Shown: positions 11,014 through 46,340, counted from the first letter of the stretch. The stretch is DNA of 64,000 bases from an uncultured Candidatus Methanogranum sp. (GCA_963676045.1 OY780938.1:200915-264914); one strand, 5' to 3'. The notes: generated by a model not told the origin, from the sequence alone. Numbers and translations are program-made.

Positions 11014-11085
11014 GTCGAGGTCAATGCGGTCGTTCGAAATAAAGTTTCAGTTGAAACCTATGTATATCTTCACGTTGATTACACC

Positions 11086-12983: not shown

Positions 12984-13206
12984 TGTTCATGTCCTCTTTG
13001 ACAATCCCGTTCGAGGTCTCCATTATCTTTTGAACTTTGCGATCGCTTTCTTCAAGGATCTTCTTGCAATGCTCTCTCAACGCGATCGCGTCCTCGTATA
13101 TCTTCAGGCTTTGGTCGAGGTCCAATCCACCGTTCTCTAATTTTTTGACCATCTCTTCTAATGCCGTTATGCTCTCTTCAAAGCTCATCTCTTCAATTCC
13201 TTTCAT
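12973..13206 (-). CDS. xseB: exodeoxyribonuclease VII small subunit
   Basis: 77 aa helical protein. FEESITALEEMVKKLENGGLDLDQSLKIYEDAIAL matches the XseB consensus. Confidence 0.85.
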   Translation of the reverse strand: MKGIEEMSFEESITALEEMVKKLENGGLDLDQSLKIYEDAIALREHCKKILEESDRKVQKIMETSNGIVKEDMNIND

Positions 13207-14468
13207 TTCAATCTGATCTCCTTGATCTTCGCGTCGATCTCCCCATCGCGCATACGTACGGTTATCTCCATATCCCTATCAATTGACTTCGCGGACGTCA
13301 ATGGACGTCCATCCTCATCGGTCACCATGCTGTATCCTCTTCCCAAGACCTTGTATGGGTCAAGGGACTCGAGACGGTTGTTAAGGTTCTCCATCTTCCT
13401 GATCTTCGATTGCATCAATTGATCCGATGCGTTTTTCAGTCTCATCTCTACGATGCCGTATCTCCTATGCATGACCTCTACAATATTCCTCAACGACGAT
13501 GCGAGTTTTGTGGAGATATGTTCCAAGAGCATGGTCTTCATAGCCACCATTTCCTCTGCGCGTCTCGGAGAGAGTTTAGAATCTATCTTGTTGAATCTGC
13601 TCCTCATCTTTTCGATACTGTAACTCAATGCCCTGTTGAGGCGTATGGTATCGTTGTTAAGTTGGTTAATTAGTTCTTTCTTATCTTTAAGTGCGATCTC
13701 GGCTGCAGCGGTGGGAGTGGCAGCACGGACGTCCGCGGCCAGATCTGAAAGTGTGAAATCGGACTCATGCCCTACAGCGGATATCGTTGGTATCTTCGAG
13801 GATGCTATCGCTCTCACAGTCGTCTCCTCGTTGAATGCCCAAAGGTCTTCCATCGAGCCTCCGCCTCTTCCAACAATTATAACGTCAACTCCTACGCGGT
13901 TCAGCAGTTCTATGCCTGCCGCAATTGATCTCGAGGCATCATCTCCTTGGACCTTTGCTGGGGCGAGGAGTATATCGGCGGGGAATCTTCTCCCAGTGGT
14001 CGTGACTATGTCATGAATAACAGCTCCGGTCTGTGATGTTACCACACCTATGACCTTCGGATAGATCGGCAATTTCCTCTTTCTTTTTTGATCGAAAAGT
14101 CCTTCTGCTTCGAGTTTCTTTTTCAATTTCTCGAATTCAGCGTAGAGATTGCCGACCCCGCCGCGTCTCATCGTCTGGACCATGAATTGATACGACCCTC
14201 TGTCCACGTATATGTCCACACTTCCAAAGGCGGTGATCTCCATGTTGTCACATGGTTCGAAATCTATTCTCGCCTTTGCCGATTTGAACATAACGCAACG
14301 TATCTCGCTGCCATTGTCCTTCATCGTGAAGTAAGAATGTCCAGAAGTGTAAAGTTTAAAATTGGAGATCTCGCCGGTGACCCAAACATCAGTTACACCT
14401 GGTGCGTTATTGATCAGATTCTTGACGCGTGTGTTCAACTGTGTGACATTAATGGTCTCTTCCATCAT
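13203..14468 (-). CDS. xseA: exodeoxyribonuclease VII large subunit
   Basis: N-terminal OB fold (VWVTGEISNFKLYTSGHSYFTMKD), catalytic core (VIGVVTSQTGAVIHD, VGRGGGSMEDLWAFN, ISAVGHESD) and a C-terminal coiled coil. Start set at ATG 14468, which gives a normal length and a divergent intergenic gap. Confidence 0.85.
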   Translation of the reverse strand: MMEETINVTQLNTRVKNLINNAPGVTDVWVTGEISNFKLYTSGHSYFTMKDNGSEIRCVMFKSAKARIDFEPCDNMEITAFGSVDIYVDRGSYQFMVQTMRRGGVGNLYAEFEKLKKKLEAEGLFDQKRKRKLPIYPKVIGVVTSQTGAVIHDIVTTTGRRFPADILLAPAKVQGDDASRSIAAGIELLNRVGVDVIIVGRGGGSMEDLWAFNEETTVRAIASSKIPTISAVGHESDFTLSDLAADVRAATPTAAAEIALKDKKELINQLNNDTIRLNRALSYSIEKMRSRFNKIDSKLSPRRAEEMVAMKTMLLEHISTKLASSLRNIVEVMHRRYGIVEMRLKNASDQLMQSKIRKMENLNNRLESLDPYKVLGRGYSMVTDEDGRPLTSAKSIDRDMEITVRMRDGEIDAKIKEIRLK

Positions 14469-14514
14469 AATCCCATATGGCAAGCTTTGATTTATCGTTT
14501 GGCTAAAATATGAA

Positions 14515-14961
14515 ATGATGGATACCATGCCCATGGACGTAGAGACTCTTAAAAATATAGTCAGTCCTGAACTGCAAGAGTATTTGCCTCGTATATTGGA
14601 GATGTGCAATGCTCCTTATGCAGTTGCCAATGACATAGAATTGGTCAGTTTGACCCCTGATTGTACACGTATGAAGAAGAAGATCGGTCCGGATGATATG
14701 AACAGCATGGGAAGGGTACATGGTGCCGCATTGTTCGGATTGATTGACCACACCTTTGCGATAGCGGCAAATGTGAAATCCGATGGTACCGGGCAATGCT
14801 GCAACATAATATATCACAGACCTTGCACTGACCTAGAGATCGAATCAGAGGCTAGGCTGATCAATGAGTCAAAATCATTGGTGATATTTGACGTAAAGAT
14901 ATATAGTGGTGGGAAACTCAGGGTATCTGCAACATGCACAGGTTTTAAGATATGCAGGTGA
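14515..14961 (+). CDS. PaaI-family hotdog-fold thioesterase
   Basis: 148 aa with the GRVHGAALFGLIDHTFAIAAN motif. Confidence 0.75.
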   Translation: MMDTMPMDVETLKNIVSPELQEYLPRILEMCNAPYAVANDIELVSLTPDCTRMKKKIGPDDMNSMGRVHGAALFGLIDHTFAIAANVKSDGTGQCCNIIYHRPCTDLEIESEARLINESKSLVIFDVKIYSGGKLRVSATCTGFKICR

Positions 14962-16522: not shown

Positions 16523-16664
16523 GTTGCCGTATAGACCATAAACCGTATAAGCTTTATTTCAAATGGATTGAATCTTCTTATTGTGTTTTAAATGTGGCAA
16601 TATCAATATTGTATCTGTTCTAATAAAGATTTTAAGAAAATTACACGAATTACAACTTTCAGTT

Positions 16665-16672
16665 TTTATAAT
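16665..16672 (+). promoter_or_regulatory. TATA-box-like element upstream of the addB-like gene
   Basis: tttataat lies 21 nt upstream of ATG 16694, suggesting a leaderless transcript and supporting that start. Confidence 0.35.
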
Positions 16673-16693
16673 GACAACTGCATCGCGGGAATC

Positions 16694-19360
16694 ATGCGGA
16701 AAGCAAAGGGCATCGATGAGATATACGATGAGGTGAAAGACTGCGATATTGTCATAACCAATGATGCCCCGCTTGCAACAGCTTTGAATTCCAGAGTCCG
16801 TAAGGCGAGCATTGGCAGTTTTGCATACACTCCAAGGCAGATCGCTGGTAAAGAAGCAGCGAAGGTATTAGGAAAGGGCACAATCGGCGATCTGAAGATC
16901 ATATCCGCCATCGCAGATGAAACAGGATTCGATTTCAAATACATACACGGTGAGCTTGAGAATATACGCACTATCCGCAGATACAGGGCCAATCCCGATA
17001 ATTATCTTTACTCAAGGGCGGCCAAAGAGGTTTACCGCTCTTTCAATGCATTGCCTACAATAGAGAAGGTCATGTCCAATTTCGACCCTTCGAAGAGTGA
17101 ATTTTATAAGGGCAGGAAGAGGATAGGCGTCATAGGATTGGATCTCTTCGATGATCTGGACAAACATTTCGTACCAATGGATTTCATAGAGGTCGACCTC
17201 TTTGAGAAGGGAGACTACGATATCGATACAATATACCAGATCGGTAATGATAGGCAGATAGCGGATAATATAGTCGAATTGATCAATCCAGATATGGTCG
17301 AGGATACTGCGATAGTGTTAGATACCGAGGGAGCTGTGGCTGATGCGATAAGGGCTGCCCTCTATAGGCGCGGATTGCCATTCAAGAATACTATGGCGGT
17401 CAGGGACCTTTCCCAAATAAGGGATTTTTTGCAATTCGTCACTTTGTCATTGAATTACGATACGATCAGGATAAGGCATGTGAGGGAGATATTCTCCAAT
17501 TACGGGGGATATCTAAGATCCAAACAGGATGAGTATCTGTTATCGAAAAGTCTGCAGAGCATAAAGAATGATAAGGCAATCAAGTTAGCAGAAATGATGA
17601 GGGACATACGCACAATGACCTTCGGAGAAGTCATGGAGAGCATCGTGCATCCTCTTCAGAGACCTCAGATAAAGATACTTTTGCAAGACCTGATGATGGC
17701 GGATAAGAAGGTAACTTCCAGATTGGTGAGCCAAATAACATATGCTGTCAACAATGTTACCGACCTTCATCATAATGAGCAGATCCCCGAAGATGAGAAG
17801 AGAGGAGTATTGCTTGTAAATTGCAATAATTCCGTATACATCGACAGGCCGTTCGTGATCTTCGTAGGTATCGGTCCGGAATGGTCGCCGAGCATAATTG
17901 GGAAGGAATACATAGATAGGGAAACCGAATTCGAGAGGGACCTTACAAGATTCTCCGTTCTGATACAACAGGGCAATTCAAGGCTATATGCGGTGAATTA
18001 TCTAAGAGGGGGAAAGCCTTCCAGGCCATGCAGTATATTTGAACAGATATATCCCGATAGAAAGATAGAGGGATTCGAGGATGTATGCAAGGAAAGCTCC
18101 CATCTCATAAAAGGCCCCTGGCACATTGTAGAGGAAAAGAAATTCTCAGATAAGGGAGAAGAGCATCTGGAACATGTACCAGTATATGATTGGAAATTCT
18201 CAAAGAGCACATACAATCTTTTTCGTCAGTGCCCAAGAGCATACATGTTCGGTGAATTGATGAGGACTCCCGATTCAGAATATACTGTGTTTGGAAGCAT
18301 AATTCACGAGTTCGCTGAACTTTACGTATGCTACCCAGAAATGGTGAGGAAGAAGGGAATAGACCATTATTTGGAGCTCATACAGGACAGGTATTCGGGG
18401 ATATCATGTGGGCAGATGGAATCCATCGATAGGACCGAGATGCGCGTAAGCATGTTGAATGTGATGAGATATCTCGATAGGACTGTCAAGGAGGTCTCGG
18501 ATCTGGACCGTAAGAATTCTGATAGGAAATATCCGAACGAATTGATGGTGCTGGAAGGTTGCGAGATGTACAGTCGGATAACTGAGACCGAATTCAGGTC
18601 TCAGAAAAACCCGATATTCGGTAATTTCGACCTGATACTCGGAGATACGATAACAGATTATAAGACAGGTAAGGCGACCGACATCAAGGGGATAAGAGAT
18701 AAGATGATCAGTCCGCAACATCATCCGGAATTTCAGCCAATGATATATCTGGCACTTTTATACCAATCATCAGGTAGATTGCCTTGCAGGTTCAATCAAT
18801 TCTACGTCAAAGATAGGCTCAGGGATTCGATAGAGATGGAAGATTTCGATGTTATGCTGAACATAAGGACGATCGAATTCATAGACATGAGCTTCGAAGA
18901 ATACATGCAAAGTCCAGATTGTCCGATAAGATCTGATTTCATGTCCAAGACCTATGAGAGATTCCTGATATCCTGGAACACTTTCATCGATACATTGTCT
19001 TCATATGGTTGGGACGATAAGGATAATTGGAGCAGGAATGAGAGATTGAAAGCATCAATACTTGATGCCATTGGTCTCAAACCGAACAAAACAAACATCG
19101 TGAATGTTGAAAGGGCCATGAATAAGGTTGTAAAAGGTACTGTAGGCATGATGTTCTGCGATGGCAATATTTTGACGATACCCAAGGACACGATGGAATC
19201 ATTTTTGATGAAACTGGATTCCGATCATGCAGATGCTTCAAGAATGACCGTTTCAAAGTTTCCAGGTTCACCTTCCAAAGATTGTTCCAAATGCAATTTC
19301 TTGAAGGTATGTACTGCAAGGATAGATGATGCGGAAGACGAGGGTGAGGAAGATGGATGA
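16694..19360 (+). CDS. AddB-like PD-(D/E)XK nuclease subunit with Fe-S cysteines, no Walker A
   Basis: Nuclease motif GNFDLILGDTITDYKTGK. Cas4/AddB-type cysteines are QCPRAY upstream plus a C-terminal CSKCNFLKVC (CX2CX5C). I saw no GxxxxGK[ST] anywhere in the protein. Confidence 0.75.
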   Translation: MRKAKGIDEIYDEVKDCDIVITNDAPLATALNSRVRKASIGSFAYTPRQIAGKEAAKVLGKGTIGDLKIISAIADETGFDFKYIHGELENIRTIRRYRANPDNYLYSRAAKEVYRSFNALPTIEKVMSNFDPSKSEFYKGRKRIGVIGLDLFDDLDKHFVPMDFIEVDLFEKGDYDIDTIYQIGNDRQIADNIVELINPDMVEDTAIVLDTEGAVADAIRAALYRRGLPFKNTMAVRDLSQIRDFLQFVTLSLNYDTIRIRHVREIFSNYGGYLRSKQDEYLLSKSLQSIKNDKAIKLAEMMRDIRTMTFGEVMESIVHPLQRPQIKILLQDLMMADKKVTSRLVSQITYAVNNVTDLHHNEQIPEDEKRGVLLVNCNNSVYIDRPFVIFVGIGPEWSPSIIGKEYIDRETEFERDLTRFSVLIQQGNSRLYAVNYLRGGKPSRPCSIFEQIYPDRKIEGFEDVCKESSHLIKGPWHIVEEKKFSDKGEEHLEHVPVYDWKFSKSTYNLFRQCPRAYMFGELMRTPDSEYTVFGSIIHEFAELYVCYPEMVRKKGIDHYLELIQDRYSGISCGQMESIDRTEMRVSMLNVMRYLDRTVKEVSDLDRKNSDRKYPNELMVLEGCEMYSRITETEFRSQKNPIFGNFDLILGDTITDYKTGKATDIKGIRDKMISPQHHPEFQPMIYLALLYQSSGRLPCRFNQFYVKDRLRDSIEMEDFDVMLNIRTIEFIDMSFEEYMQSPDCPIRSDFMSKTYERFLISWNTFIDTLSSYGWDDKDNWSRNERLKASILDAIGLKPNKTNIVNVERAMNKVVKGTVGMMFCDGNILTIPKDTMESFLMKLDSDHADASRMTVSKFPGSPSKDCSKCNFLKVCTARIDDAEDEGEEDG

Positions 19361-22229
19361 CCTGAACGCATCTCAAAGGAATATAGTGGATCATTTAGAC
19401 GGAATGATAGTGGTAGATGCGGGACCTGGCACAGGCAAGACCAAGACCATCGTCGAACGTTACATCAACATATTGGAACACGGGGTGGACCCAAAGGATG
19501 TGATACTGTTAACATTCACCCGCAACGCAGCACAAGAGATGGAGGACAGGATAAAGGGCAGGATGGTGCATTCCAAGAATTCGGAGAAATCCAAGGACGT
19601 GAGGGCAGGGACCTTCGATTCATTCTGTTTTTCAGTTATAATGGAATCTCCAGAGGCTGTAAGCAGGTTCTTCGGCATCAATGAAAGGTTGACGAGGAGT
19701 GCCAGGACAGTTGAGAACGAGACCCTCAATAAGGTATATTTCTCCGATTTCATGGATCGTTTCCTCGCAGATAAAGGAGTGGATTACGGCGCGTACTCGA
19801 TAATAGCGAGTCAGCATTATGCAGAATTATATGGTGTCATAAACAAGCTGATGTCGCGCGGTGTCACTCCTGTAAGAGATGGATGGTTCGGGGGGGATGA
19901 TGGCAAGGTCCTCTATGGAGATAAGGATCAGATGTCTCGCAGGATCAATGCGTTGAACGATATGTTAGATGGGAATGAGTATGAGCTTTCGAAGTACATG
20001 TCCAGCAATACCGATGGCAAATATGCGCCGATAGATCATGCATTCGATGGGACGATGCCCTTATCCGAAGAAATGATAAACGAGGCGATCAACGACGATC
20101 GGACCCTTTTGATCAAGCTCATACATGATGTCTACTACGATTTCATAAGGCGGTCGATAATAGATGATAGGCTCACATTCGGCCTGGTATCATCTTTTGC
20201 ATTCGTGGTGCTATATTCAGATGAGAACGTCAGAGATAGGATGCGCTGCAGATATCTCATGATCGACGAATTCCAAGATACCAACAGCAATCAGTTCATG
20301 ATCGCTTTGATGCTCTTGAAGGAACCAAACCTATGCGTTGTTGGCGATTGGAAGCAGGGCATATATGGCTTCAGATACGTTTCCACAGAGAACATAACAA
20401 GATTCCACGAAAAAGGCCGTAATTTAAGGACATTCCTGAATGAAGACAAGGCTCGTGTACCTTTTCATATCGATGAATGCGAATCAATGTCGCTGGATAT
20501 GAATTACAGAAGTTCCCAGCAGATCATCGACAAGGCATATGATGCCCTCAAGATACCCGCTTACAATGGAGAGGAAATAATATTGGGAAGTGTGAAAAGG
20601 ATATCCGCAGCAAAGGAATACCTCAACGAGCATACAGGTATCGAATGCATCCTGGCAACTTCATACGAGAATGAGATACAAGAGGTCCTAAGGAGGATAC
20701 AGAAGTATGTTTCCGATGGCAATTACGAGATATGCGATGACGGACCTCCACCGAGGGCAGTCCGTTATGATGATATTGCCATACTCTGTAGGAAGACCTC
20801 GCTGGCTAGAGGGATATTCGAAGCCGCATCATCCGCAGGGATACCGGCCTTCTTACAGGGCGATGTCGACATCATGGGTTCCAGAGAGGGAAAACTATTG
20901 CTCGCATGGCTCCGCTATATAAACAATGAGAGCGACCCATGGGGGATATGCACGATACTCGTGGATCAGGGGTATCCACTGTGCGAGATACGTGAGATCA
21001 ACGAAGCAGGGGCGTCAGCCATACCTTCGGAGATAAGGGAGAAGAGGCGGGAGCTGGTGTTGAAGAAGCGCAGGGTCACCAGTCTCATCTCGTCCATATT
21101 CGATTATTATCAATTGAACAATGACGTAACGCAGACAATAATCTCTGTATTGTCATCGGCGCATAGGAATTCATTGCTCACAGTGTCGGACATAATACGT
21201 ATGATCGAGACGGACATAGAGAGTTCAACGGTATATCCAGTGGACTCATTCCTCAATAGGCAGGCCGTCACTATACAGACGATACACAAATCGAAGGGTC
21301 TCGAATACCCGGTAGTCATCGTTGCAGGGTTCAACAAGAACTCATTCCCTAGTACAAAGGGAGATTCATCAGAATACATATTCAACGATATGACAGGGAT
21401 AAGATCGAAGAGCCAGGTATGTCCTATAGACGGGAACAACTTCAATATAATGGCATCATGGAAGACAAGACTGGTGATGAGATGCATAGACAAGGATTAC
21501 AGTGAGGAGAGAAGGCTCCTATTCGTCGCGATATCCAGGGCAAAGCAATATGTGGCGATCACATCATCCAACCCCTCCTCGTTCTTCGTCGGGCTGTCAG
21601 AGGGAGTAGGTATTACCAGTTCAGGAAAAGAAAAGGTATGTTTGCCGTACAATGAATATTCGGAGTCGATGATCGACCCTCCTGAGATCAAGGGATTCAC
21701 AAAGAGAAGGAGGAACATCGGCGTCCATGATATACTCCGTTTCGAAGGGGAGGATGCACCTCCAGAGGGTTCGGATCAGGTTTGCGGGAAAGGCATGGAA
21801 TACGGGATAAAGGTCCATCATGCCGCGGAGTTGATGGCGAGGGGTATACAGTTAGACAGCGAATATTCAAAGCTGCCTGAGGTCGAGGAGATCGGAAGGG
21901 TGCTTGATTCTGTGAAGGATGCAGTTTATATTGAATCGGAGATAGAATGCGCCTTGCCATTCAATGATATGAACATAACGTTGAGGGGCATAATAGACCT
22001 ATATGCGGAATTCTCAGACCACGTGGAGATACATGATTACAAGACGGACGTATCCGATGTGTTCGAGGGCGAGTACAAGATGCAGTTGAGCGTATATGCT
22101 CATGCAGCTGCAGAGGTCACAGGCAAGAAAGTACTATGCATAATCGATTATGTATCACAAGGTAGGAGCATATCGTTCTCTCCGTTGGAAAAAAGGTATA
22201 TAGAGATCCGTTTGGCGGATTACTCATAA
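19353..22229 (+). CDS. AddA/UvrD-like SF1 helicase with C-terminal RecB-type nuclease
   Basis: Helicase motifs GPGTGKT, LMIDEFQDTN, VGDWKQGIYGFR, NYRSS, TIHKSKGLEYPVV and LLFVAISRAK. C-terminal nuclease GIIDLY...EIHDYKTD...QLSVY. ATG 19353 overlaps the upstream stop by 8 nt; an alternative ATG lies at 19326. Confidence 0.85.
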   Translation: MDDLNASQRNIVDHLDGMIVVDAGPGTGKTKTIVERYINILEHGVDPKDVILLTFTRNAAQEMEDRIKGRMVHSKNSEKSKDVRAGTFDSFCFSVIMESPEAVSRFFGINERLTRSARTVENETLNKVYFSDFMDRFLADKGVDYGAYSIIASQHYAELYGVINKLMSRGVTPVRDGWFGGDDGKVLYGDKDQMSRRINALNDMLDGNEYELSKYMSSNTDGKYAPIDHAFDGTMPLSEEMINEAINDDRTLLIKLIHDVYYDFIRRSIIDDRLTFGLVSSFAFVVLYSDENVRDRMRCRYLMIDEFQDTNSNQFMIALMLLKEPNLCVVGDWKQGIYGFRYVSTENITRFHEKGRNLRTFLNEDKARVPFHIDECESMSLDMNYRSSQQIIDKAYDALKIPAYNGEEIILGSVKRISAAKEYLNEHTGIECILATSYENEIQEVLRRIQKYVSDGNYEICDDGPPPRAVRYDDIAILCRKTSLARGIFEAASSAGIPAFLQGDVDIMGSREGKLLLAWLRYINNESDPWGICTILVDQGYPLCEIREINEAGASAIPSEIREKRRELVLKKRRVTSLISSIFDYYQLNNDVTQTIISVLSSAHRNSLLTVSDIIRMIETDIESSTVYPVDSFLNRQAVTIQTIHKSKGLEYPVVIVAGFNKNSFPSTKGDSSEYIFNDMTGIRSKSQVCPIDGNNFNIMASWKTRLVMRCIDKDYSEERRLLFVAISRAKQYVAITSSNPSSFFVGLSEGVGITSSGKEKVCLPYNEYSESMIDPPEIKGFTKRRRNIGVHDILRFEGEDAPPEGSDQVCGKGMEYGIKVHHAAELMARGIQLDSEYSKLPEVEEIGRVLDSVKDAVYIESEIECALPFNDMNITLRGIIDLYAEFSDHVEIHDYKTDVSDVFEGEYKMQLSVYAHAAAEVTGKKVLCIIDYVSQGRSISFSPLEKRYIEIRLADYS

Positions 22230-24855: not shown

Positions 24856-25478
24856 TCCTTTTGATAAGGATAATTTCCATTATTGTGCATTTCCACCATC
24901 ACATATGACGCCATTCTCGCATCCGACAATGCGCGATGGTCCTGTTTACCATTGATGCATGCTGGGTCATTATCTTTCAATATCATTTTATATGCTATTT
25001 CGAGTTTTGGCCATCTGTAGTCATCAAAATAATTCATCGATCTGAGTTTGCATACATAAGTTGCTGCCAACATTATGTCCTGGCACTGATTGAATCTGCC
25101 TCTCATGTCCCATGGCGTTTTGAACAGGAATTTGTTAAAATCATATCCTGTATTGTATGATGTGACATTCTTGTCACATAGTATCGATCTTACTTCTTGG
25201 AGCACTTTTTCAAATGGACGACCGCCGTCTACCATTTCAAGGGTCATATCTGTATTTTGGAATATCCAAGCATTCTTTCTATAATCATTCCATGTGCCAG
25301 TGTCATATCCCACAACAGTGGAATATACATCATCCACCGTTCCATTCTCAAGATCGACAGCGCAAATGCCTATATCCACGACGACGTCATCGGGCGCTCC
25401 GAGAAGCCCTGTGGTCTCAGTATCAAGTACATATATCAGGTTCTTAGGTCCTTCATCGAATGAGAACAGATCTTTCAT
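24834..25478 (-). CDS. DEDDh 3'-5' exonuclease (DnaQ-like)
   Basis: Exo I VLDTETTG, Exo II SYNTGYDFNKF, Exo III HRALSDA. Confidence 0.8.
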   Translation of the reverse strand: MKDLFSFDEGPKNLIYVLDTETTGLLGAPDDVVVDIGICAVDLENGTVDDVYSTVVGYDTGTWNDYRKNAWIFQNTDMTLEMVDGGRPFEKVLQEVRSILCDKNVTSYNTGYDFNKFLFKTPWDMRGRFNQCQDIMLAATYVCKLRSMNYFDDYRWPKLEIAYKMILKDNDPACINGKQDHRALSDARMASYVMVEMHNNGNYPYQKDQRFQNL

Positions 25479-26089
25479 TATGTGTCATCTTCCAATTTTT
25501 TTGATATAAGGGAATATTCTTTGAAACAGATTATAACAAGCAACACGGATATGATCAGCGCAATAATCCCAAGAGAAAGGTTCATATCTAATCCGATGTC
25601 AATCTTATTTGCACTGTCGTTGACTTCGGTCGTGGTCTCCCCATCAGGATTTTCGGTATCAGGAGCATAATCGGAAGGGTATTCCAATGTATCTGTGAAT
25701 ATTATCTCAATATCCTCATATACATTGTATATTGTGAAATATGAGTAATAGCCAGATAGATAGGGGGTTTCATATTCGGTGAATCTATAATTGGTGCCAG
25801 TATCCATTTTATCTGTTTCTGGATCATAACTGTAGAACATTATTCCTGATTGGGAAAGGTCATACTTTTCTGAATGGGCCTTAAAGGATAGGATGCCGTT
25901 GCTTATCTGGACCGCATTATTGTCCAGGGGCGTTCCGGTTGTAAAGGTCACTGTTATACCGTCAATGTTCGTATAGTGTATGGTATGGGTCGAGCTATCT
26001 GCATCGACCTCTTCAATAGCGTAAAGGCAAGGGGTCAATAAGGCAACCAAGATGATAATGGAAAGGGCCCCCGATCTCATATTTGGCAC
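25478..26089 (-). CDS. secreted, C-terminally membrane-anchored protein of unknown function
   Basis: Signal-like N-terminus (ALSIIILVALLTPCLYA) and a C-terminal TM (LGIIALIISVLLVIICF). No domain recognised. Confidence 0.45.
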   Translation of the reverse strand: MPNMRSGALSIIILVALLTPCLYAIEEVDADSSTHTIHYTNIDGITVTFTTGTPLDNNAVQISNGILSFKAHSEKYDLSQSGIMFYSYDPETDKMDTGTNYRFTEYETPYLSGYYSYFTIYNVYEDIEIIFTDTLEYPSDYAPDTENPDGETTTEVNDSANKIDIGLDMNLSLGIIALIISVLLVIICFKEYSLISKKLEDDT

Positions 26090-29153: not shown

Positions 29154-30344
29154 GTGGCCACTTTCAAATTCATACACTGTTCAGATCTGCATCTTGGAAG
29201 CAGGGCATATGGTATCCTCAGCAGAGACCCGGAGTTAGGTAAGAGGATGACAGAGGCGACCTTCAAGTCGTTCTCAAGGATAATGGACCGTGCCATAAAG
29301 GACAATGTGGATTTTATCGTAATCTCGGGTGACATATTCGATGAGACTACGGAGACACCGGCGACACGTTATAGATTCTCTATGGAACTTTCAAGGACTG
29401 ACATCCCGATATTCATCTGTCTTGGAAATCATGACTATATGATGTCATGGACAGATAGCATACCTTATCCAAAGAATGTACATGTTTTCAATAAAGAACC
29501 AGAGAGCATCGTGCTAAGTTTATCAAACGGTGCTGTGGAGATAATCGGTAGGAGTTTTCCTTCAGCTCATTCCTCTTTGAATCCCATTCAAGACATAAAG
29601 GGTAAAGATGGTATCTTCTCTGTAGCGCTCGTCCATTGCAGTGTTGATGTGGTTGCAATGGATGACGAATACGGACCGTGTAGACTTTCAGATATGTTGA
29701 ACAGATCCGTGGATTATTGGGCCTTGGGACATATACACAAGAGGTCCGAATTGAGCAGGGATCCATGCGTGGTGTATCCCGGTAATATTCAGGGCAGGAG
29801 CAGGAGGGAGATAGGCCCCAAGGGTGCATATATGGTCCGCGTCACCAATGATCAGGTTCAAGGTCTGGAATTCTTCCCAACACAAGAGGTTCTATGGGAG
29901 GATGTTTGTTGCGATATATCCGACAAGACCATGAGTTCTTTGATGAAAGATATAATCGCCTCTGTTAAAAGAGGGTCCATTGTCAACCTGACATTATCCG
30001 GACGTGGTCTTCTAGATAACATATTACGTTTAGATACATATGCGGTAATACAACAGATAGAACTGATATCTGGTTGTTATTTAGCAGATGTTCGTATCAA
30101 TACCTATCCTTCAATAGATAGGAATGAGTTGTCAAAAGGTAATGATATACGTTCCAAGATAATACAATCATCAGATAGCATCTCTCTGCTTGGGCGGGAG
30201 GAGATCATAGATATGATATGCTCCACGAAACAATCAGCTTCGATAAGGTATATGCTGGAGTGGTTGGACGATGATGAATTGAAGGCTTTGGTCCACGATT
30301 CGGAAGCACTTCTCATCGATAAGCTGACGGGGGTATCGAGATGA
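29154..30344 (+). CDS. Mre11/SbcD-family metallophosphoesterase nuclease (YhaO-like)
   Basis: Phosphoesterase motifs HCSDLHLG, SGDIFD, LGNHD and LGHIH. 396 aa. The stop overlaps the next start (ATGA 30341-30344). Confidence 0.8.
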   Translation: MATFKFIHCSDLHLGSRAYGILSRDPELGKRMTEATFKSFSRIMDRAIKDNVDFIVISGDIFDETTETPATRYRFSMELSRTDIPIFICLGNHDYMMSWTDSIPYPKNVHVFNKEPESIVLSLSNGAVEIIGRSFPSAHSSLNPIQDIKGKDGIFSVALVHCSVDVVAMDDEYGPCRLSDMLNRSVDYWALGHIHKRSELSRDPCVVYPGNIQGRSRREIGPKGAYMVRVTNDQVQGLEFFPTQEVLWEDVCCDISDKTMSSLMKDIIASVKRGSIVNLTLSGRGLLDNILRLDTYAVIQQIELISGCYLADVRINTYPSIDRNELSKGNDIRSKIIQSSDSISLLGREEIIDMICSTKQSASIRYMLEWLDDDELKALVHDSEALLIDKLTGVSR

Positions 30345-32542
30345 GGATATCATCAATCCGCATCGGTTCATTCGGTGAGCTGAGGGATAGGAGATTGGAC
30401 CCTGGCCATAATCTCACTCTGATATATGGAAAGAATGAGACAGGCAAGACAACAATAATGGAATTCACAAGGAGTACGATGTTTCCAGACAACCAGAGGA
30501 AACATTATCCGGAGTACAGGAGCACCGATCAAGGCGAGCTTGATTATGAGGACTGCTCTGGGGAGAGATTCACGATATTCCGTGAGGGTAAGAAGGTGAG
30601 GTCTGATCATATGCCTTCAGAATCCGTGCATATGGAACCACAGCTGTACAGATCGTTGTTTGCAATGTCGCCCGACGATCTCAGGGATTCGAAGGTAATC
30701 TCTTCGGGAGATATCAAAAATCGTTTCCTCACGATACCTGGCGGGGACCTATTGCCCAAGACGATCGATGATATCGATTCTGAGATGAAAGAGATAATGA
30801 GCGTTGATAGAAAATCGTCGTCAACAAAAATATCCAAATTAATGTTCGATATAGAAGACAACAACAGGGAAATCATCGCATTCAAGGAGAAGGACGATCA
30901 ATATTATCAGAAGGTATCTGAGAGAAACGATCTTTTGAGAACCTTCGAGTCTTTAAAGGATGAGAAGAGTAAAAACGATACGGAAGTGGTCAAATACAAG
31001 GTACAAAGTTCGCAAAATGAGAACGTGTCCAGACTGGATGGTCTGAAAGCAAAGAAAGAGGGGCTGTCAGTATCCGCGATAGTATCTGATGGCGACATAG
31101 GAAGATACGATCTATTGAAGAGGGACCTAAAGGCAGCCGCGAGGCAGGCAGATGTTGCCCGTTCGGATTATGAGGGTTACAAGGATTCCACCGAGGGTAT
31201 AGACCATGCCCAATTATTGGTACATCGTTCTACTATAGAGGACTTGAAACAGAAGGAGCAGTATTACTCTCAGATCTCCAGGCAGAAACAGGAATTCATT
31301 TCCAATGAAGAAAAGGCAAGGGATGATGCGAACAGGCGGGTCATTCGGAGGGATGATTCAAGTTCAAAGGATTTTGATAGAAGACCAATATTATTGGGCA
31401 TACTTGGACTGATCGTTTTCACGATGATCGGAATATTATCGAATATCCTGGTCTCGTTTATCGGAGTGGCGATATTGGCAATCTCCATCTGGTTCTCTTT
31501 CAACGGCAGTACCAAGAAACAAGATCCGAAAACGGACACCGTCGATAATACGCAGGTAGAATATTGGCATGATAAGGCAGCAGTAACGGACAGAGAGATC
31601 TCCGAGATGGATAGGACCCTGAACAATCTGTCCAAAAGATTGGGTCTGGAGAGGTCGTCGTTCATCATGGACGTGGACCACATCCATTCATTGCTGGGAA
31701 ATGCGATGGGCGTGAACAGGGCAATAGAGAATAAGGAAAGATCGGAGATCTCAGAGAGCAAAGCCCAATCGGATCTAAATCTCTTCATCTCCAAGTTCGG
31801 TTCCGAGGAGAGGTTCATGGAACTATGCAAGATGAAGAAGGAATACGATTCCGTATGCGGTCAGATAGGTGTATTGGAAGAGAGCATAAGGTCGTCAGGT
31901 TATGTAAACGATGCTCCAATGGTGGAGATCCAGGACGGGTCCGAGATCCAGGGGAGGATCGAGGACATACAAAGGAAGATAGGCGATATTGATAGACAGA
32001 TAACCTCCATACGCGAAGAGAATCAAATGGAAAGGTTGCTGGATATGCGCACGATATTGACGACCGACCTATACAACGCAGTGAAGAGATGGGCCGTTCT
32101 ATCGATGGCGAGGTCGATGGTCGAGAATGCATGCGATTCAATATATTCTGATGTACAGCCAGGTGTAATATGCACCGCCGACGGTCTTGTAAGGTCCATG
32201 ACATGTGGAAGATACGGGCTTGAGATGGACATACGTACAAACGAAGTGAAGGTGGTCTCGGGGACCACAGGCAAGAAAGAGGGAGAATGGAGCACGGGTC
32301 TGGGGGATCAGGTCTATCTGTCAATAAAACTGGCGATCGCAAAAGAAATGTCGCGCGAGGAACCTCTGCCGATAATTTTGGATGATGTACTGCTCATGTT
32401 CGATTCAGATAGGAAGAAGAGCGCCTGCGATGCATTGATCGGTTTGTCGAACGAGATGCAGATCCTATTCTTCACGTGTGATGCAGAGACCTTGTCGATC
32501 ATGCGTGATTGCAATGCATGTAAGATAGTGGAAATACTGTAA
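30341..32542 (+). CDS. Rad50/SbcC-like SMC-type ATPase with central transmembrane hairpin (YhaN-like)
   Basis: Walker A GKNETGKTT. C-terminal signature STGLGDQVYLSIKLA and Walker B LPIILDDVL. Long charged helical arms flank two hydrophobic helices at 31381-31505 (ILLGILGLIVFTMIGILSNILVSFIGVAILAISIWF). No CxxC hook. Confidence 0.8.
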   Translation: MRISSIRIGSFGELRDRRLDPGHNLTLIYGKNETGKTTIMEFTRSTMFPDNQRKHYPEYRSTDQGELDYEDCSGERFTIFREGKKVRSDHMPSESVHMEPQLYRSLFAMSPDDLRDSKVISSGDIKNRFLTIPGGDLLPKTIDDIDSEMKEIMSVDRKSSSTKISKLMFDIEDNNREIIAFKEKDDQYYQKVSERNDLLRTFESLKDEKSKNDTEVVKYKVQSSQNENVSRLDGLKAKKEGLSVSAIVSDGDIGRYDLLKRDLKAAARQADVARSDYEGYKDSTEGIDHAQLLVHRSTIEDLKQKEQYYSQISRQKQEFISNEEKARDDANRRVIRRDDSSSKDFDRRPILLGILGLIVFTMIGILSNILVSFIGVAILAISIWFSFNGSTKKQDPKTDTVDNTQVEYWHDKAAVTDREISEMDRTLNNLSKRLGLERSSFIMDVDHIHSLLGNAMGVNRAIENKERSEISESKAQSDLNLFISKFGSEERFMELCKMKKEYDSVCGQIGVLEESIRSSGYVNDAPMVEIQDGSEIQGRIEDIQRKIGDIDRQITSIREENQMERLLDMRTILTTDLYNAVKRWAVLSMARSMVENACDSIYSDVQPGVICTADGLVRSMTCGRYGLEMDIRTNEVKVVSGTTGKKEGEWSTGLGDQVYLSIKLAIAKEMSREEPLPIILDDVLLMFDSDRKKSACDALIGLSNEMQILFFTCDAETLSIMRDCNACKIVEIL

Positions 32543-32843: not shown

Positions 32844-34736
32844 ATGAATATTGATCCAAACGCAACAAAATATATGATCAAAGCCAAGATAACCGCTGAT
32901 GGCATCGTTGAGAAACCAGATGTCGTCGGCGCGATATTCGGGCAGACAGAAGGACTTCTTGGAGACGATCTCGATCTGAGAGACCTTCAAAAATCAGGCA
33001 GAATCGGAAGGATAGAGGTAGATATTGTCTCGAAGGGCGGGAAGTCTGAGGGAATAGTCTACATGGCATCATCACTCGACCAGGTAGAGACAGTTGTTCT
33101 CGCATCCGCACTCGAGACGATCGACCGTGTCGGACCTTGCAAGGCAGCGATCCGTGTCCTCGGAATAGAGGATGTGCGCATAACCAAGAGGGAGAAGGTC
33201 GTAGAGCGTGCAAAGGAACTTTTGAATGATCTGATAGCGCAATCCAAGGGAACATCCTCGGATCTTACGCAGAGTATAAGGCAGTCAATACAGGTTGAGG
33301 AGATAACCACATACGGAAAGGACAAATGTCCTGCCGGTCCAGCGGTCAAGGATTCAGAATCCATTATAATCGTTGAGGGAAGGTCAGATGTCCTCAATCT
33401 GCTAAGAGCAGGTATCAAGAACGCCATCGCAGTAGAGGGTACGAACATACCCAAGACGGTCCAGGACCTTTCAAGGGAAAGGGTCGCTACTGCTTTCACA
33501 GATGGGGACAGAGGAGGCGAATTGATCCTCAGGGAACTTTTCCAGACATCGGAGATTGATTTCGTCGCTCGCGCACCTCGTGCTCACGAGGTAGAGGAGC
33601 TGAGTTCCAAACAGATAGTGAAATGCCTTCGCAACAAGGTCCCCGGTGACCAATACATGGAGATGAACGGCCTCAGTTATGAGGAGAAGGAACTAGGCGA
33701 GACATCTGAGCGCGACCTCCGTGAGGGTGAGCGCGAAGACCGCCATGAGCGTACCAAGGAGAGCCGCGACCGCGAGGAAGAGAGGCCAAGAAGGGACCGC
33801 GATTCACGTGGCGACGAACGTCGCGAGCGCAGAACCGACAGGACAGAGAGGCCAGAAAGGTCTGAAAGACCGGAGAGGGCTGAGAGGACCACTGAGAGGA
33901 CCACTGAGAGAACCGACAGGCCAACCGAGAGGACCGACAGGAACGACAGGACAGAGAGGCCAGAAAGGTCTGAAAGACCGGAGAGGGCTGAGAGGACCAC
34001 TGAGAGAACCGACAGGCCAACCGAGAGGACCGACAGGAACGACAGAAGGAAAGAAAGGACGACGACAAGGGATTCTTCCGAGTCCGATCAAGATGAACGT
34101 CGCGAGCGCAAAGAGAGATTCAACAGCGAGAACGCCGAGAGATTCAAGAAGAAGGTATCACGCGAGGAAGTGGCCGAGGAAAGCTCCGAACATGCGGATG
34201 AGTCTGCAGAGTCTGAGAACAAGATAGCAGAGATCAAAGAATCCACAGTAGTGGAGAAGTCTACAGAGTCATTCGACAGGTCCGAATCCTCAGAGGAAAC
34301 AAGGGTAAATGATTTCCAGGATGATTCCAAGAAGAAGAGGGTACGCGAGAAATCCGAGAAGACGGAGAGGGCACCGAGGGATGAGGAGAAATCTGGAAGG
34401 ACACTCCGCTCCAAGAAGGACAGGAACACAAAGACCCTGTCTCCGGAGCAGGAGATATTCAGGGACATGCTCCTCGATATGTCATCGACCCATAATGCGA
34501 AGATACTCTCAACGGACAACTCCGTCATAAAAGAGGTAGCTGTCAAAGGACTCGTCAATTCACTCAAGGAAGAGTCCGAGGGAATATCCACAATAATCTT
34601 CGACGGCGTCATTTCCCAGAGGATACTTGATGTATCTGCTGAGAAAGGAATAGGCACCATAGTCGGTACTCGCAAGGGAAACATCACTAAGATGCCTGCT
34701 AATATAGTCATCTGGACCAAAGAGGACCTCTATTGA
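32844..34736 (+). CDS. dnaG: archaeal DnaG (Toprim primase/exosome-associated) with large charged insertion
   Basis: N-terminal KYMIKAKITADGIVEKPDVVGAIFGQTEGLLG and Toprim motifs IIIVEGRSDV and TDGDRGGE. The C-terminal domain resumes near FRDMLLDM. I rejected the listed start at 32676 in favour of the SD-preceded ATG 32844. Confidence 0.85.
   Translation: MNIDPNATKYMIKAKITADGIVEKPDVVGAIFGQTEGLLGDDLDLRDLQKSGRIGRIEVDIVSKGGKSEGIVYMASSLDQVETVVLASALETIDRVGPCKAAIRVLGIEDVRITKREKVVERAKELLNDLIAQSKGTSSDLTQSIRQSIQVEEITTYGKDKCPAGPAVKDSESIIIVEGRSDVLNLLRAGIKNAIAVEGTNIPKTVQDLSRERVATAFTDGDRGGELILRELFQTSEIDFVARAPRAHEVEELSSKQIVKCLRNKVPGDQYMEMNGLSYEEKELGETSERDLREGEREDRHERTKESRDREEERPRRDRDSRGDERRERRTDRTERPERSERPERAERTTERTTERTDRPTERTDRNDRTERPERSERPERAERTTERTDRPTERTDRNDRRKERTTTRDSSESDQDERRERKERFNSENAERFKKKVSREEVAEESSEHADESAESENKIAEIKESTVVEKSTESFDRSESSEETRVNDFQDDSKKKRVREKSEKTERAPRDEEKSGRTLRSKKDRNTKTLSPEQEIFRDMLLDMSSTHNAKILSTDNSVIKEVAVKGLVNSLKEESEGISTIIFDGVISQRILDVSAEKGIGTIVGTRKGNITKMPANIVIWTKEDLY
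33837..34040 (+). repeat. in-frame tandem duplication (108 bp + 96 bp) inside dnaG
   Basis: Unit 1 (33837-33944) and unit 2 (33945-34040) are identical except for an extra 12-nt gaccactgagag in unit 1. They encode DRTERPERSERPERAERTTER(TTER)TDRPTERTDRN. Confidence 0.85.
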
Positions 34737-44297: not shown

Positions 44298-46340
44298 TCA
44301 ACCGTTCCTTCTCTTGATCGCAACCAATGTGCCGACGATGGCGATGGCCACAGCGGAGATGCCTGCCAAGAGACCTTTGCCATCCGACAGAAGATCGCCA
44401 TCAGATCCGTTCTGTGCATCGCTGACGGTGAATGAGCAATAGGTCGTATTTATGGTATCCTGTATGCTGACCTTCATCTTATGCTCACCCGGGGGCAATC
44501 CATTCAGTGCAAGTCTCGGTATATCGGTCGTGATAGATTCTCCGTCATCAAGTGACCAGATATATGTAAGCGATCCTGGGGCATTCACGGCGAATATATA
44601 GAAACCTTCGAAATCCGATGTACCTTTTTCGACAGTTATCTCGATATCATCCAGTTCTGCGGTGTTATTGTCCTTCCAATCCTTCATGAAATATCCTGTG
44701 AAGAATCCATTCACCTCCGTTGAGTAGATCACGACTGCCGTCTCACGATTGTCAAGGAATGAAGTCTCAGTCCAATTGACGGAGCCGACCCATGTGATGT
44801 CACCATCGATGAGCACACCTTTGTTATGCGTGGTCTGGAATCCATCTCCGCCGTCTATCGAACAGGCCTTCACATCTGTAGTTGTGTTGATCAGATTTAT
44901 CATCGGGGAGACATCATCAATGGAGCCGTCGAGTATGAATCTGCATTGAACTCCTCTGTTGGCAGCGTCATTCATCCATGAGATCGGAGAATCATCATCT
45001 ATCTTCGAGTATGAATTTCCAAGGTCCAGTTGTTCTGAGGATATGCTATGGTCGGCTCCCTCCATCAGTTCCTTCAATGCATCGTAGGAGTTATCAGGCG
45101 ATAATATAGGCACTACTTCGGATTGATAATGGCCCATTTCGTATTCTTTTGCCGGCGAGGTGTAGGAAAGGTCTCCACGGTAAGGTTTCAAGTCAGGGAA
45201 TCTTTCCATGAGCGGGACCGCATCTCCATACGAGGCATCATGGTCATTCTCCCATATATCCATCATATATTGGGCATATTCATCGCTTTCGATCATCACG
45301 CCCCATCCACGATTTGCATATCTGGATCCGCTCATGTTGTCTGTGGTCCAATTCTCTGAAGTGATTATGACTTTATCTCCATCAATGATCGCGTATTTGT
45401 TGTGGAAAAAGGAGAATCTCTCATAGTTCCCTGATTCAGGCGTATTTATGGTCCAAACTTCTCCGCCTGACATGACTATGGATCCCATCAACGATAGTTC
45501 GGTGCTCATATCATAGTTCAGAGGATCCCCTTCGATGATGATTTTAACATCCACATGTTCATCCCCCGTTCTTTCTTCCAGGTCTATCAAAAGCCCTACA
45601 AGATTCTTGCTGGTCAGTTGATATATGGAGATCAATACCTCATCATCGGCCTGTTCTATCGCCCTGTATATCGGTATGCCCTCTGATTCGGGGAATGTGA
45701 ATGGTGACACAATGCAGTCCATGGGCTCATCAGGGTCAAATTCACGGTTGGTCAGTCCGGGTTTCGTCTTTATCCAGTCAGCTGAGGTGTCAGTATCCAA
45801 CACGCCTGTTCTTAATATGTAGGAATTCGATGAGATAGGCACAGGGGATCCTGACCAGCCAATGGAGGCGGTCTTGTTTCCATAGCATACGGAATCCATC
45901 AACATCGAATCTGATGACAATGTGACATCATCGCCAGAGTTGTTCAATATGAAACTACCTGTTTTGGTTACACCGTTGGTGTTCACATGGATAACTGGAT
46001 CCCTCGATGAGAACCAATCATCATCGGCGTCCCCTATCACGACCGTAAGACGTGAACGAGAGGCTATCGTCAACGACTTCGTGAACGAGATCGTCCCTTC
46101 ACCGTCCGTGACCTTCATTCCAAGCAGATCCACGTCGGTGGAACCATAATTGTAAAGTGAGAATCCTTCGTTACCATATGGGTCCACCTCATAGATCCTC
46201 ACGAGACAGGTAGAATCGCCATCAGAATAATCGATGAATAAAGGTATGGAAAAGATGCATGATGCGATTATGATGAGGATGGATGCCTTTCGGACGATGT
46301 TCGATCCGATCATCGAGCGTAAGGCCATCCGATCACTCAA
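44298..46340 (-). CDS. membrane-anchored extracellular protein: lamin-tail domain + two PLD HKD motifs (Nuc-like) + Ig-like domain
   Basis: N-terminal TM/signal and an LTD-like VRIYEVDPYGNEGFSLYNYGSTDVDLLGMKVTDGEG. HKD motifs are HNKYAIIDGDKVIITSENWT and HNKGVLIDGDITWVGSVNWT. C-terminal TM is LLAGISAVAIAIVGTLVAIKRR. Confidence 0.75.
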   Translation of the reverse strand: MSDRMALRSMIGSNIVRKASILIIIASCIFSIPLFIDYSDGDSTCLVRIYEVDPYGNEGFSLYNYGSTDVDLLGMKVTDGEGTISFTKSLTIASRSRLTVVIGDADDDWFSSRDPVIHVNTNGVTKTGSFILNNSGDDVTLSSDSMLMDSVCYGNKTASIGWSGSPVPISSNSYILRTGVLDTDTSADWIKTKPGLTNREFDPDEPMDCIVSPFTFPESEGIPIYRAIEQADDEVLISIYQLTSKNLVGLLIDLEERTGDEHVDVKIIIEGDPLNYDMSTELSLMGSIVMSGGEVWTINTPESGNYERFSFFHNKYAIIDGDKVIITSENWTTDNMSGSRYANRGWGVMIESDEYAQYMMDIWENDHDASYGDAVPLMERFPDLKPYRGDLSYTSPAKEYEMGHYQSEVVPILSPDNSYDALKELMEGADHSISSEQLDLGNSYSKIDDDSPISWMNDAANRGVQCRFILDGSIDDVSPMINLINTTTDVKACSIDGGDGFQTTHNKGVLIDGDITWVGSVNWTETSFLDNRETAVVIYSTEVNGFFTGYFMKDWKDNNTAELDDIEITVEKGTSDFEGFYIFAVNAPGSLTYIWSLDDGESITTDIPRLALNGLPPGEHKMKVSIQDTINTTYCSFTVSDAQNGSDGDLLSDGKGLLAGISAVAIAIVGTLVAIKRRNG

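Follow-up and report, generated by a model that had tools for sequence, protein, structure and literature searches.

The SbcF–SbcE locus of Candidatus Methanogranum

The 64,000-nt stretch of DNA analysed here (the window), from an uncultured Candidatus Methanogranum sp. (GCA_963676045.1 OY780938.1:200915-264914), carries two adjacent genes encoding a nuclease of the SbcF/YhaO type and an SbcE/YhaN-type Rad50/SMC-like ABC ATPase, the latter with a predicted transmembrane hairpin at its midpoint (Table 1). A first-pass annotation, made from the sequence alone, had described an Mre11-like nuclease coupled to a Rad50/SMC-like ATPase with long helical arms, two consecutive hydrophobic helices at the midpoint and no CxxC zinc hook in the arms. 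This description was borne out. Both open reading frames (ORFs), the ATGA overlap between them and the length of the ATPase were confirmed, and the motifs quoted for the nuclease (DLH, GDIFD, GNHD, GHIH) and the ATPase (GKNETGKTT, STGLGDQ, LPIILDD) are all present. The hydrophobic segment, which had been placed at 31381-31505, was essentially right: the quoted peptide corresponds to aa 350-385 (31388-31495) within the full uncharged stretch. Comparisons with Pfam, sequence searches of the PDB and fold searches agree on the nuclease, the fold search with the ATPase is headed by Rad50 of C. thermophilum, and both arms, which the model renders as long helices, display heptad periodicity.

The nuclease and ATPase genes are translationally coupled. 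In the many archaeal loci with cleanly called ORF ends, the nuclease ORF likewise stops 3 nt past the start of the ATPase gene, producing an identical overlap. The spacing between the GTG start codon of the nuclease gene and a candidate archaeal TATA-like box is such that a leaderless or near-leaderless transcript would follow.

Table 1. Features of the SbcF–SbcE locus, with positions counted from the first nucleotide of the window.
Feature	Position	Strand	Residues	Remarks
Candidate archaeal TATA-like box TTTATAA	29125..29131	+		read from the sequence; 23-29 nt 5' of the GTG
SbcF/YhaO-type Mre11/SbcD-fold nuclease	29154..30344	+	396 aa	GTG start, ORF call
All five phosphoesterase motifs of the nuclease	29184..29738	+		
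Phosphoesterase motif DLH	29184-29192	+	nuclease aa 11-13	
Phosphoesterase motif GDIFD	29328-29342	+	nuclease aa 59-63	
Phosphoesterase motif GNHD	29424-29435	+	nuclease aa 91-94	
Phosphoesterase motif IV, within VHCS	29631-29642	+	nuclease His161	
Phosphoesterase motif GHIH	29727-29738	+	nuclease aa 192-195	
ATGA stop/start overlap of the two genes	30341..30344	+		4 bp
SbcE/YhaN-type Rad50/SMC-like ABC ATPase	30341..32542	+	733 aa	
Walker A GKNETGKTT	30428..30454	+	ATPase aa 30-38	
N-terminal coiled-coil arm	30827..31336	+	ATPase aa 163-332	long helices in the AlphaFold2 model; heptad a/d contrast z = 3.2
Charged low-confidence linker RVIRRDDSSSKDFDR	31337..31381	+	ATPase aa 333-347	precedes the first hydrophobic helix
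Predicted transmembrane helical hairpin	31382..31507	+	ATPase aa 348-389	uncharged, ~41 aa, midpoint of the ATPase
Charged low-confidence linker NGSTKKQDPKTDTVDN	31502..31549	+	ATPase aa 388-403	follows the second hydrophobic helix
C-terminal coiled-coil arm	31550..32146	+	ATPase aa 404-602	long helices in the AlphaFold2 model; heptad a/d contrast z = 4.3
ATPase C-terminal head motifs, whole span	32291..32482	+		
Signature STGLGDQ	32291-32311	+	ATPase aa 651-657	
Walker B LPIILDD	32366-32386	+	ATPase aa 676-682	D-D, not D-E
D-loop LMFD	32393-32404	+		
H-loop position FFTCD	32468-32482	+	ATPase aa 710-714	Asp replacing His

A predicted transmembrane hairpin at the apex of the ATPase

In the AlphaFold2 (AF2) model of the ATPase, the hydrophobic stretch, which sits at 0.47-0.53 of the protein length, folds into a hairpin formed by helix 1 (aa 348-367), an L-S-N turn and helix 2 (aa 369-387). 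The hairpin is framed by the two charged linkers, in which the predicted local distance difference test score (pLDDT) falls below 50 over aa 332-345 on the N-terminal side and aa 388-401 on the C-terminal side. The mean Kyte-Doolittle hydropathy over 19 residues (KD19) exceeds 2.1 throughout aa 357-379 and peaks at 2.49, and a summed Hessa-type insertion scale (Hessa et al., 2005) is negative in 14 scan segments of the ATPase. When these measures were calibrated on 21 proteins of the window, such values were reached by the ATPase, two known membrane proteins (TrkH and a P-type ATPase) and a C-terminally anchored hypothetical protein, and by none of the other 17, soluble-type proteins (0/17). 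Both hydrophobicity scales that were applied support insertion, and the hairpin is thus predicted to enter the membrane. Between aa 73 and 723 the ATPase contains no CxxC; the sole such motif of the protein, CNAC (aa 724-727), is located in the C-terminal head and is not conserved, and the Pfam profile Rad50_zn_hook yields no match to the ATPase at E <= 0.1. No hook-bearing orthologue aligns across the hydrophobic segment, and the segment of the Bacillaceae orthologue that does align is also a hydrophobic hairpin.

The hydrophobic apex characterises the entire known SbcE/YhaN family. The midpoint stretch is kept in 14/14 archaeal homologues, at 28-91% identity, and these proteins together with four YhaN-type bacterial homologues carry a hydrophobic stretch of 40-55 residues at 0.43-0.54 of their length and no central CxxC; four larger, more distant proteins (1150-1200 aa) are devoid of such a stretch. 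A profile search of 1.84 billion cluster representatives retrieved 3855 proteins at E < 1e-30, and among the best 150 of these, all 134 full-length proteins, bacterial as well as archaeal, possess the mid-protein hydrophobic stretch, with one stray case of a mid-protein CxxC. In nearly all relatives, KD19 lies between 2 and 3.1. In a set of 191 non-identical sequences, the median length of the uncharged core is 43 residues, A, L, V, G and I make up ~72% of the core and D, E, K and R 1.3%, and in 105 of the 191 a Pro occurs within the first 6 core residues. Family-wide, a polar turn is found at relative position 0.52 of the core, and Lys/Arg is in excess on the two flanks (N-terminal 3.6 and C-terminal 3.4 per 15 aa, versus 2.1 expected), with mean net charges of +1.75 and +1.49, respectively. 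In alignment A1, a profile of 15 archaeal ATPase homologues, the core sequence is poorly conserved whereas its hydrophobicity is invariant, as expected of lipid-facing helices.

The segments on either side of the hairpin have the properties of coiled-coil arms. When the contrast between heptad positions a and d was scored against shuffled controls, periodicity was confined to the two arms (Table 1), and the heads showed none. Among 151 relatives, the spacing between Walker A and the hairpin is tightly correlated with that between the hairpin and the signature motif (r = 0.976), also among the short-form ATPases alone (r = 0.95, slope 0.95), the correlation being partly phylogenetic given that the sequences are related. 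Such co-variation fits, and is required by, an antiparallel coiled coil that forms within one molecule and is tipped by the hairpin. The pairing of the arms and the geometry of the hairpin were judged from the secondary structure and pLDDT of the AF2 model (pLDDT 82.4), which was built from a shallow alignment of 15 sequences. By every sequence criterion applied, the central domain of SbcE thus appears to be a transmembrane hairpin at the coiled-coil apex.

The nuclease and the ATPase head

The nuclease adopts the Mre11/SbcD fold, and its di-metal active site is complete. It matches Pfam Metallophos (E 8.3e-17), and sequence comparison with the PDB retrieves Mre11 and SbcD structures, including P. 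furiosus Mre11 at 4.3e-13. The AF2 model, computed from 32 homologues (pLDDT 89.6; predicted template modelling score 0.78), agrees with the Mre11 fold, which comprises a phosphoesterase core and a capping domain, and in a Foldseek search against the PDB its best 50 matches were all Mre11 or SbcD, with target-normalised template modelling scores of up to 0.72. All 32 homologues have D11, H13, D60, D63, N92, H93, H161, H193 and H195. The best NCBIfam matches are archaeal Mre11 models (4.8e-17, partial), but the scores remain far under the equivalog cutoffs (61.9 bits versus 600 for Mre11_Pyroc and 51 versus 500 for Mre11_Sulfo), and the sbcd subfamily model is also missed (52.7 versus 77.65), indicating that the protein belongs to a separate (YhaO) branch of the superfamily and is not an Mre11/SbcD orthologue.

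The N-terminus of the ATPase (aa 1-56) matches Pfam AAA_27 (PF13514; E 5.1e-08, 33.2 bits versus a cutoff of 22), a domain present in all ATPase homologues, including those named YhaN; further Pfam matches are to AAA_23 and, at the C-terminus, to SMC_N. Walker A residues G30, N32, E33, G35 and K36 are invariant in alignment A1. The best solved relatives of the A1 profile are Rad50 heads (3tho Rad50 at 7.7e-10), and a second database search with this alignment recovered no proteins beyond those already found. The top Foldseek match of the ATPase model is C. thermophilum Rad50 (7zr1, E 8.8e-17), followed by Smc5/6, MukB, Lamassu and SbcC, the matches including Lamassu LmuB and JetC. The ATPase head accordingly resembles that of Rad50 in fold and is interrupted by an antiparallel coiled coil. 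Across the YhaN family, Walker B reads D-D nearly everywhere. The H-loop residue is more variable: nearly all archaeal members have Asp (FTCD), Megasphaera has Ser (FTCS), the Bacillaceae orthologue has Asn, and many other bacterial YhaN proteins have kept His. Because of the D-D Walker B and the H-loop Asp, ATP turnover in the archaeal clade is probably slow; judging from these motifs, ATP binding and head engagement are likely retained, with hydrolysis possibly slow.

Orthology to the Bacillaceae yhaO–yhaN pair

The ATPase homologues form two groups, namely, archaeal proteins of 697-783 aa from Methanomethylophilaceae and their relatives, and bacterial proteins of 857-994 aa which are named 'YhaN' by their sources. 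As a reference YhaN, standing in for the B. subtilis protein, we used P0015 from Sediminibacillus (Bacillaceae). The locus of P0015 has the order Metallophos-YhaN-(GbsR)-OB/HD(YhaM)-...-YhaL, with Spore_YhaL nearby, which we take to match the yhaO-yhaN-yhaM-yhaL arrangement of B. subtilis. Alignment of A1 with P0015 by hhalign extended over 711 columns, pairing positions 1-729 with 1-970, with a probability of 99.9% and E 6.5e-34, and superposed the archaeal and P0015 hydrophobic hairpins. The window nuclease shares 37% identity over 257 aa with the YhaO of the P0015 locus (E 2e-56). Given that the nuclease is far closer to YhaO than to any Mre11 and that the ATPase aligns with YhaN end to end, the pair is, as judged by sequence comparison, orthologous to Bacillaceae yhaO–yhaN (SbcF/SbcE). 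The first-pass annotation had noted a resemblance to this pair, and the relationship proved stronger than claimed.

To our knowledge, work on B. subtilis published in 2009 (Krishnamurthy et al., 2009/2010; PMC2811018) is the only functional study of SbcEF, which we consider the least understood of the SMC-like repair complexes. A later survey refers to SbcEF as 'poorly characterized' (PMC6452273). B. subtilis SbcE has no CxxC and contains a 'unique' central domain with a hydrophobic first half and a conserved proline, which is insoluble when expressed alone; SbcE interacts with SbcF, its loss impairs double-strand-break repair and transformation, and both proteins gather, in a ComK-dependent manner, at the DNA-uptake pole of competent cells (PMC2811018). 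Thus, of the novelty implied by the initial description, the archaeal occurrence and the membrane reading stand, whereas a CxxC-less hydrophobic central domain had already been described in 2009 (PMC2811018). In the literature that we searched on SbcE/YhaN in conjunction with membrane or transmembrane, no statement of a transmembrane central domain was found.

Distribution, neighbourhood and provenance

A scan of one genome per GTDB species recovered 77 loci. The short form of the ATPase is found throughout Methanomassiliicoccales (Methanomethylophilaceae, Methanomassiliicoccaceae, Methanoplasma, Methanogranum, Methanarcanum and Methanomicula), with the nuclease gene directly 5' of the ATPase gene in every locus with sufficient flank. 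The locus order in archaea is fixed: CobQ-CbiA upstream on the opposite strand, then nuclease-ATPase, then dnaG-lonB-like downstream. Among the archaeal-type loci, dnaG is found downstream in 51/64, a LonB-like AAA gene in 48/64 and CobQ upstream in 40/64. This neighbourhood is kept across the order down to ~28% identity, and one of its carriers is a 1.66-Mb chromosome at 37% ATPase identity. The remainder of the window is ordinary core genome, encoding thermosome, a class II aminoacyl-tRNA synthetase, FBPase, histidinol dehydrogenase, PurA and others. We found no relatives in 2.9 million viral contigs, and the plasmids scanned contained no full-length relatives, only distant matches to the C-terminal head named 'YhaN family protein' by NCBI. 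The fixed core synteny, the absence from viral contigs and the restriction of plasmid matches to distant, partial ones favour a vertically inherited housekeeping function over a mobile defence island. Literature searches combining Methanomassiliicoccales with Rad50/Mre11 returned nothing relevant, and the comparative-genomics paper on the order is silent on repair genes.

Six loci from sediment/brine Methanomassiliicoccales (L056, L058-L060, L062 and L063) encode a long, bacteria-like SbcE of 960-982 aa, whereas in most other, largely host-associated, members SbcE measures 660-810 aa, the shortening being symmetric around the hairpin. The next relatives are found in Megasphaera, other Veillonellaceae and one Synergistaceae genome. 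In a rough neighbour-joining tree of the heads, the short archaeal forms constitute one clade, sister to the long archaeal forms, and the archaeal forms then join Negativicutes and Synergistaceae, all inside bacterial YhaN. This position suggests that the genes passed once from bacteria to archaea and that the two arms were then shortened in step. Most likely, as far as the tree and the protein lengths indicate, the pair was acquired once from bacteria by the ancestor of Methanomassiliicoccales, and the arms were then shortened symmetrically, from ~980 to ~700 aa.

Five loci labelled Eggerthellaceae, Faecalibacterium, Acutalibacteraceae and Bacteroides salyersiae in 'cleanbin' assemblies (L012, L021, L023, L042 and L050) carry the archaeal short-form pair. 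Of these, 4/5 also contain the archaeal dnaG and lonB-like genes, and CobQ/CbiA is present in L012, L023 and L042, L012 having these alone. The five are almost certainly mis-binned or mislabelled Methanomassiliicoccales contigs.

Several other genes of the window deserve mention. About 7 kb upstream of the pair, an AddB-like PD-(D/E)XK protein of 922 aa (16592-19360, +) is followed by a 967-aa protein combining a UvrD-helicase with a PD-(D/E)XK domain (19326-22229, +), for which the best NCBIfam match is Gram-positive AddA, under cutoff; a relative whose ATPase is 37% identical keeps the AddA-like gene in synteny. Farther upstream is the gene for the large subunit of exonuclease VII (ExoVII; 13203-14609, -). 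Together, the AddAB-like pair, ExoVII and SbcEF look like a bacterial-style break-repair toolkit in an archaeon. A PARIS-like pair comprises an ABC ATPase (10981-12129, +; Pfam AAA_21/AAA_15), which matches PADLOC AriA at 2.8e-26 over its C-terminal half only, and a DUF4435 protein (12093-12983, +) matching PADLOC AriB at 1.5e-12. Downstream of SbcE, the archaeal DnaG primase (32844-34736, +; NF003108, 3.3e-153) probably starts at ATG 32844 rather than at GTG 32676, where the mechanical ORF begins; tandem repeats at ~33836-34060 (period 108 x 2.1 copies, with sub-periods of 9, 12 and 21) encode an insertion rich in Arg/Glu/Thr/Asp, and the DnaG orthologue in locus L001 is ~90 aa shorter. A 203-aa protein without a Pfam match (25478-26089, -) is hydrophobic at its N-terminus and strongly so in a C-terminal segment (KD19 maximum 3.13), and only a few relatives keep it at this position. 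Finally, a 680-aa protein with a Lamin Tail Domain and two PLD-like domains (44298-46340, -) has a syntenic counterpart in L001, a PLDc_2 protein of 676 aa.

Alternative explanations

Several points weigh against the reading of the pair as a membrane-anchored SbcF–SbcE complex of bacterial origin. Insertion of the hairpin rests on prediction. The AF2 confidence in the hairpin is moderate, with means of ~56-73 over 10-residue blocks, and drops below 50 in the linkers. Small-xxx-small (GxxxG-like) motifs, a sign of tight lateral dimerisation, are not enriched in the hairpins (z = -2.7); small residues recur at i+7 (z = 6.5) and i+3, these z-scores being inflated by the relatedness of the sequences. 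In growing B. subtilis cells, SbcE-YFP forms foci 'on the nucleoids' which move from pole to pole within a minute, and the study reports no membrane pattern, the word 'transmembrane' being absent from it (PMC2811018). With Walker B reading D-D and the H-loop lacking His, ATP hydrolysis itself would be in question. The stoichiometry of SbcE and SbcF and the pairing of hairpins rest on analogy, the direction of the transfer on an unbootstrapped neighbour-joining tree of ~290 head columns, and the patterns used in the genome scan were tuned to this clade, so that other archaeal lineages may carry the pair as well. Some of these observations would suit a central segment that forms a soluble hydrophobic dimerisation core, a hinge or a substitute for the hook which becomes buried through pairing with a second SbcE, in a complex free on the nucleoid like Rad50/SbcC: the mobile nucleoid foci, the moderate model confidence and the i+7 spacing, which fits helix–helix packing of any kind, are compatible with it, as is the isolated domain having been reported as insoluble (PMC2811018). 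We regard such a soluble core as unlikely, because a segment of 40-55 residues which is almost free of charge and built largely of A, L, V, G or I, with hydropathy in nearly all relatives in the range of bona fide membrane proteins of the window, is flanked on both sides by basic residues in a positive-inside pattern, and because its sequence varies freely while staying hydrophobic, as is common in helices that face lipid but unusual for a specific protein interface.

A membrane-tethered end-nuclease would also be well positioned against entering DNA, and the pair could accordingly serve in defence against phages or plasmids, in the manner of ATPase–nuclease systems such as Lamassu, Gabija, PARIS, Septu or Wadjet, intercepting incoming DNA at the membrane instead of acting in housekeeping repair. 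PADLOC reports weak matches of the ATPase to AriA (2.5e-10), mad3, GajA, PtuA and LmuB and of the nuclease to an 'Effector endonuclease' model (4.3e-05), LmuB and JetC are among the structural matches of the ATPase, and the PARIS-like pair lies ~17 kb upstream. However, most of the ATPase matches, including all of the weaker ones, are limited to ~40-70 residues of the generic N-terminal P-loop region; those to AriA and mad3 are longer (aa 1-471 and 2-491) yet weak (38.7 and 27.7 bits), cover partial profiles and point to different systems, the nuclease matches are weak and partial, and no one system has its models matched full-length by both proteins. Unlike a variable defence island, the locus is fixed in the core genome across the order and without relatives on viral contigs or full-length ones on plasmids, and in B. 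subtilis the orthologue shows phenotypes in repair and in transformation (PMC2811018). A defence role thus appears quite improbable. Still harder to sustain is descent from a canonical, vertically inherited archaeal Mre11-Rad50 that diverged strongly and lost its hook. Archaeal Mre11 models are indeed the best NCBIfam matches of the nuclease, and the best solved relatives of the two proteins are archaeal Mre11 and bacterial or archaeal Rad50; but the Mre11 scores are partial and of 62 and 51 bits against equivalog cutoffs of 500-600, YhaO is much closer, the ATPase aligns with YhaN end to end, hairpin included, herA/nurA neighbours were not found among the window ORFs scanned with Pfam, and the nearest non-archaeal relatives are Negativicutes and Synergistaceae, with the archaeal clade nested in bacterial YhaN. 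We consider this scenario very improbable. On balance, there is a good probability that the pair is an archaeal SbcF–SbcE (YhaO–YhaN), a divergent branch of Mre11-Rad50/SbcCD, with an apex hairpin predicted to lie in the membrane.

Possible mechanism and cellular role

By analogy with Mre11(2)-Rad50(2) and SbcCD, two SbcE heads would engage upon ATP binding and be joined by an SbcF dimer, so that DNA ends or hairpins could be clamped and cut. Each intramolecular antiparallel arm, ~25 nm long, would end in a hairpin within the cytoplasmic membrane, connected through flexible linkers of ~15 aa; both linkers would be cytoplasmic, and only the outer turn of 2-5 residues would be exposed. With such short linkers and arms of this length, the nuclease head would be kept within roughly 30 nm of the membrane, and since almost nothing would be exposed outside, the hairpin would be an anchor rather than a sensor. 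The membrane, possibly together with lateral pairing of two hairpins, could assume the apex-joining role of the zinc hook.

The cellular role is likely to be the processing of double-strand breaks or DNA ends near the membrane, possibly of incoming DNA, because in B. subtilis loss of SbcE impairs break repair as well as transformation, and SbcE and SbcF localise to the pole with the DNA-uptake machinery (PMC2811018). Anchoring of the tip in the membrane could explain why these proteins gather at the DNA-uptake pole. The proposal of a Rad50-type machine anchored in the membrane by its tip rests on the presence of the hairpin in 134/134 full-length relatives, the positive-inside flanks and the co-varying arms. 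A more far-reaching scenario, which we put forward tentatively and with more doubt than confidence, is that the hairpin truly replaces the zinc hook and confines end processing to a submembrane shell of ~30 nm, where the substrate could be incoming DNA or the membrane-attached chromosome, and that, with the AddAB-like pair, SbcEF may have displaced archaeal Mre11-Rad50-HerA-NurA in Methanomassiliicoccales. If true, an archaeal order would run bacterial-style break repair. More generally, bacterial-type genes for end processing (SbcEF, the AddAB-like pair and ExoVII) are present at a conserved core locus across a whole order of methanogens from hosts and sediments, which bears on break repair in these archaea and on gene flow from gut bacteria.

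Comparison with known systems

The pair shares with PARIS AriAB, Gabija GajAB, Septu PtuAB and Lamassu LmuB the two-gene composition of an ATPase with an ABC-type P-loop and a nuclease, and, as here, some defence pairs have coiled-coil insertions; the N-terminal and the structural similarity are both weak. In contrast to the TOPRIM, HNH or Cap4 nucleases of those systems, the nuclease has the Mre11 fold, and the location is core, syntenic and order-wide, with no full-length match to a PADLOC model. We know of no PARIS, Gabija, Septu or Lamassu system whose coiled coil has a membrane hairpin at the apex.

The resemblance to Mre11-Rad50 and SbcCD is deeper and encompasses the five-motif di-metal Mre11-fold nuclease, the ABC head split by a long antiparallel coiled coil, the organisation of nuclease and ATPase in an operon and, presumably, an ATP-driven clamp-and-cut action on DNA ends. 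Unlike in Rad50/SbcC, a predicted transmembrane hairpin occupies the apex in place of the CxxC zinc hook, Walker B reads D-D instead of D-E, the H-loop His is missing, and the arms are much shorter, at ~170-200 aa each. The nuclease scores far under the Mre11/SbcD equivalog cutoffs, and the HerA/NurA partners of archaeal Mre11-Rad50 were not seen among the window ORFs scanned with Pfam.

The closest counterpart is B. subtilis SbcE/SbcF (COG4717 'YhaN', PF13514), with which the archaeal pair has in common the nuclease-then-ATPase gene order, the AAA_27 N-terminus, the head-arm-central domain-arm-head architecture without CxxC, a hydrophobic midpoint that is often initiated by Pro, the D-D Walker B and profile homology from end to end. 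The archaeal version differs in its host (Methanomassiliicoccales), in the length of the ATPase, which is ~250 residues shorter (733 versus ~960-990 aa) with both arms shortened alike, and in the H-loop, where Asp takes the place of the Asn of the Bacillaceae orthologue and the His of many other bacteria. In addition, unlike those of the Bacillus pair, the archaeal genes overlap by 4 bp, and their neighbours are dnaG and the lonB-like gene instead of yhaM and yhaP/Q. The pair thus extends a known family and does not define a new type of system; the novelty resides in finding it in archaea and in reading the central domain explicitly as a predicted membrane element.

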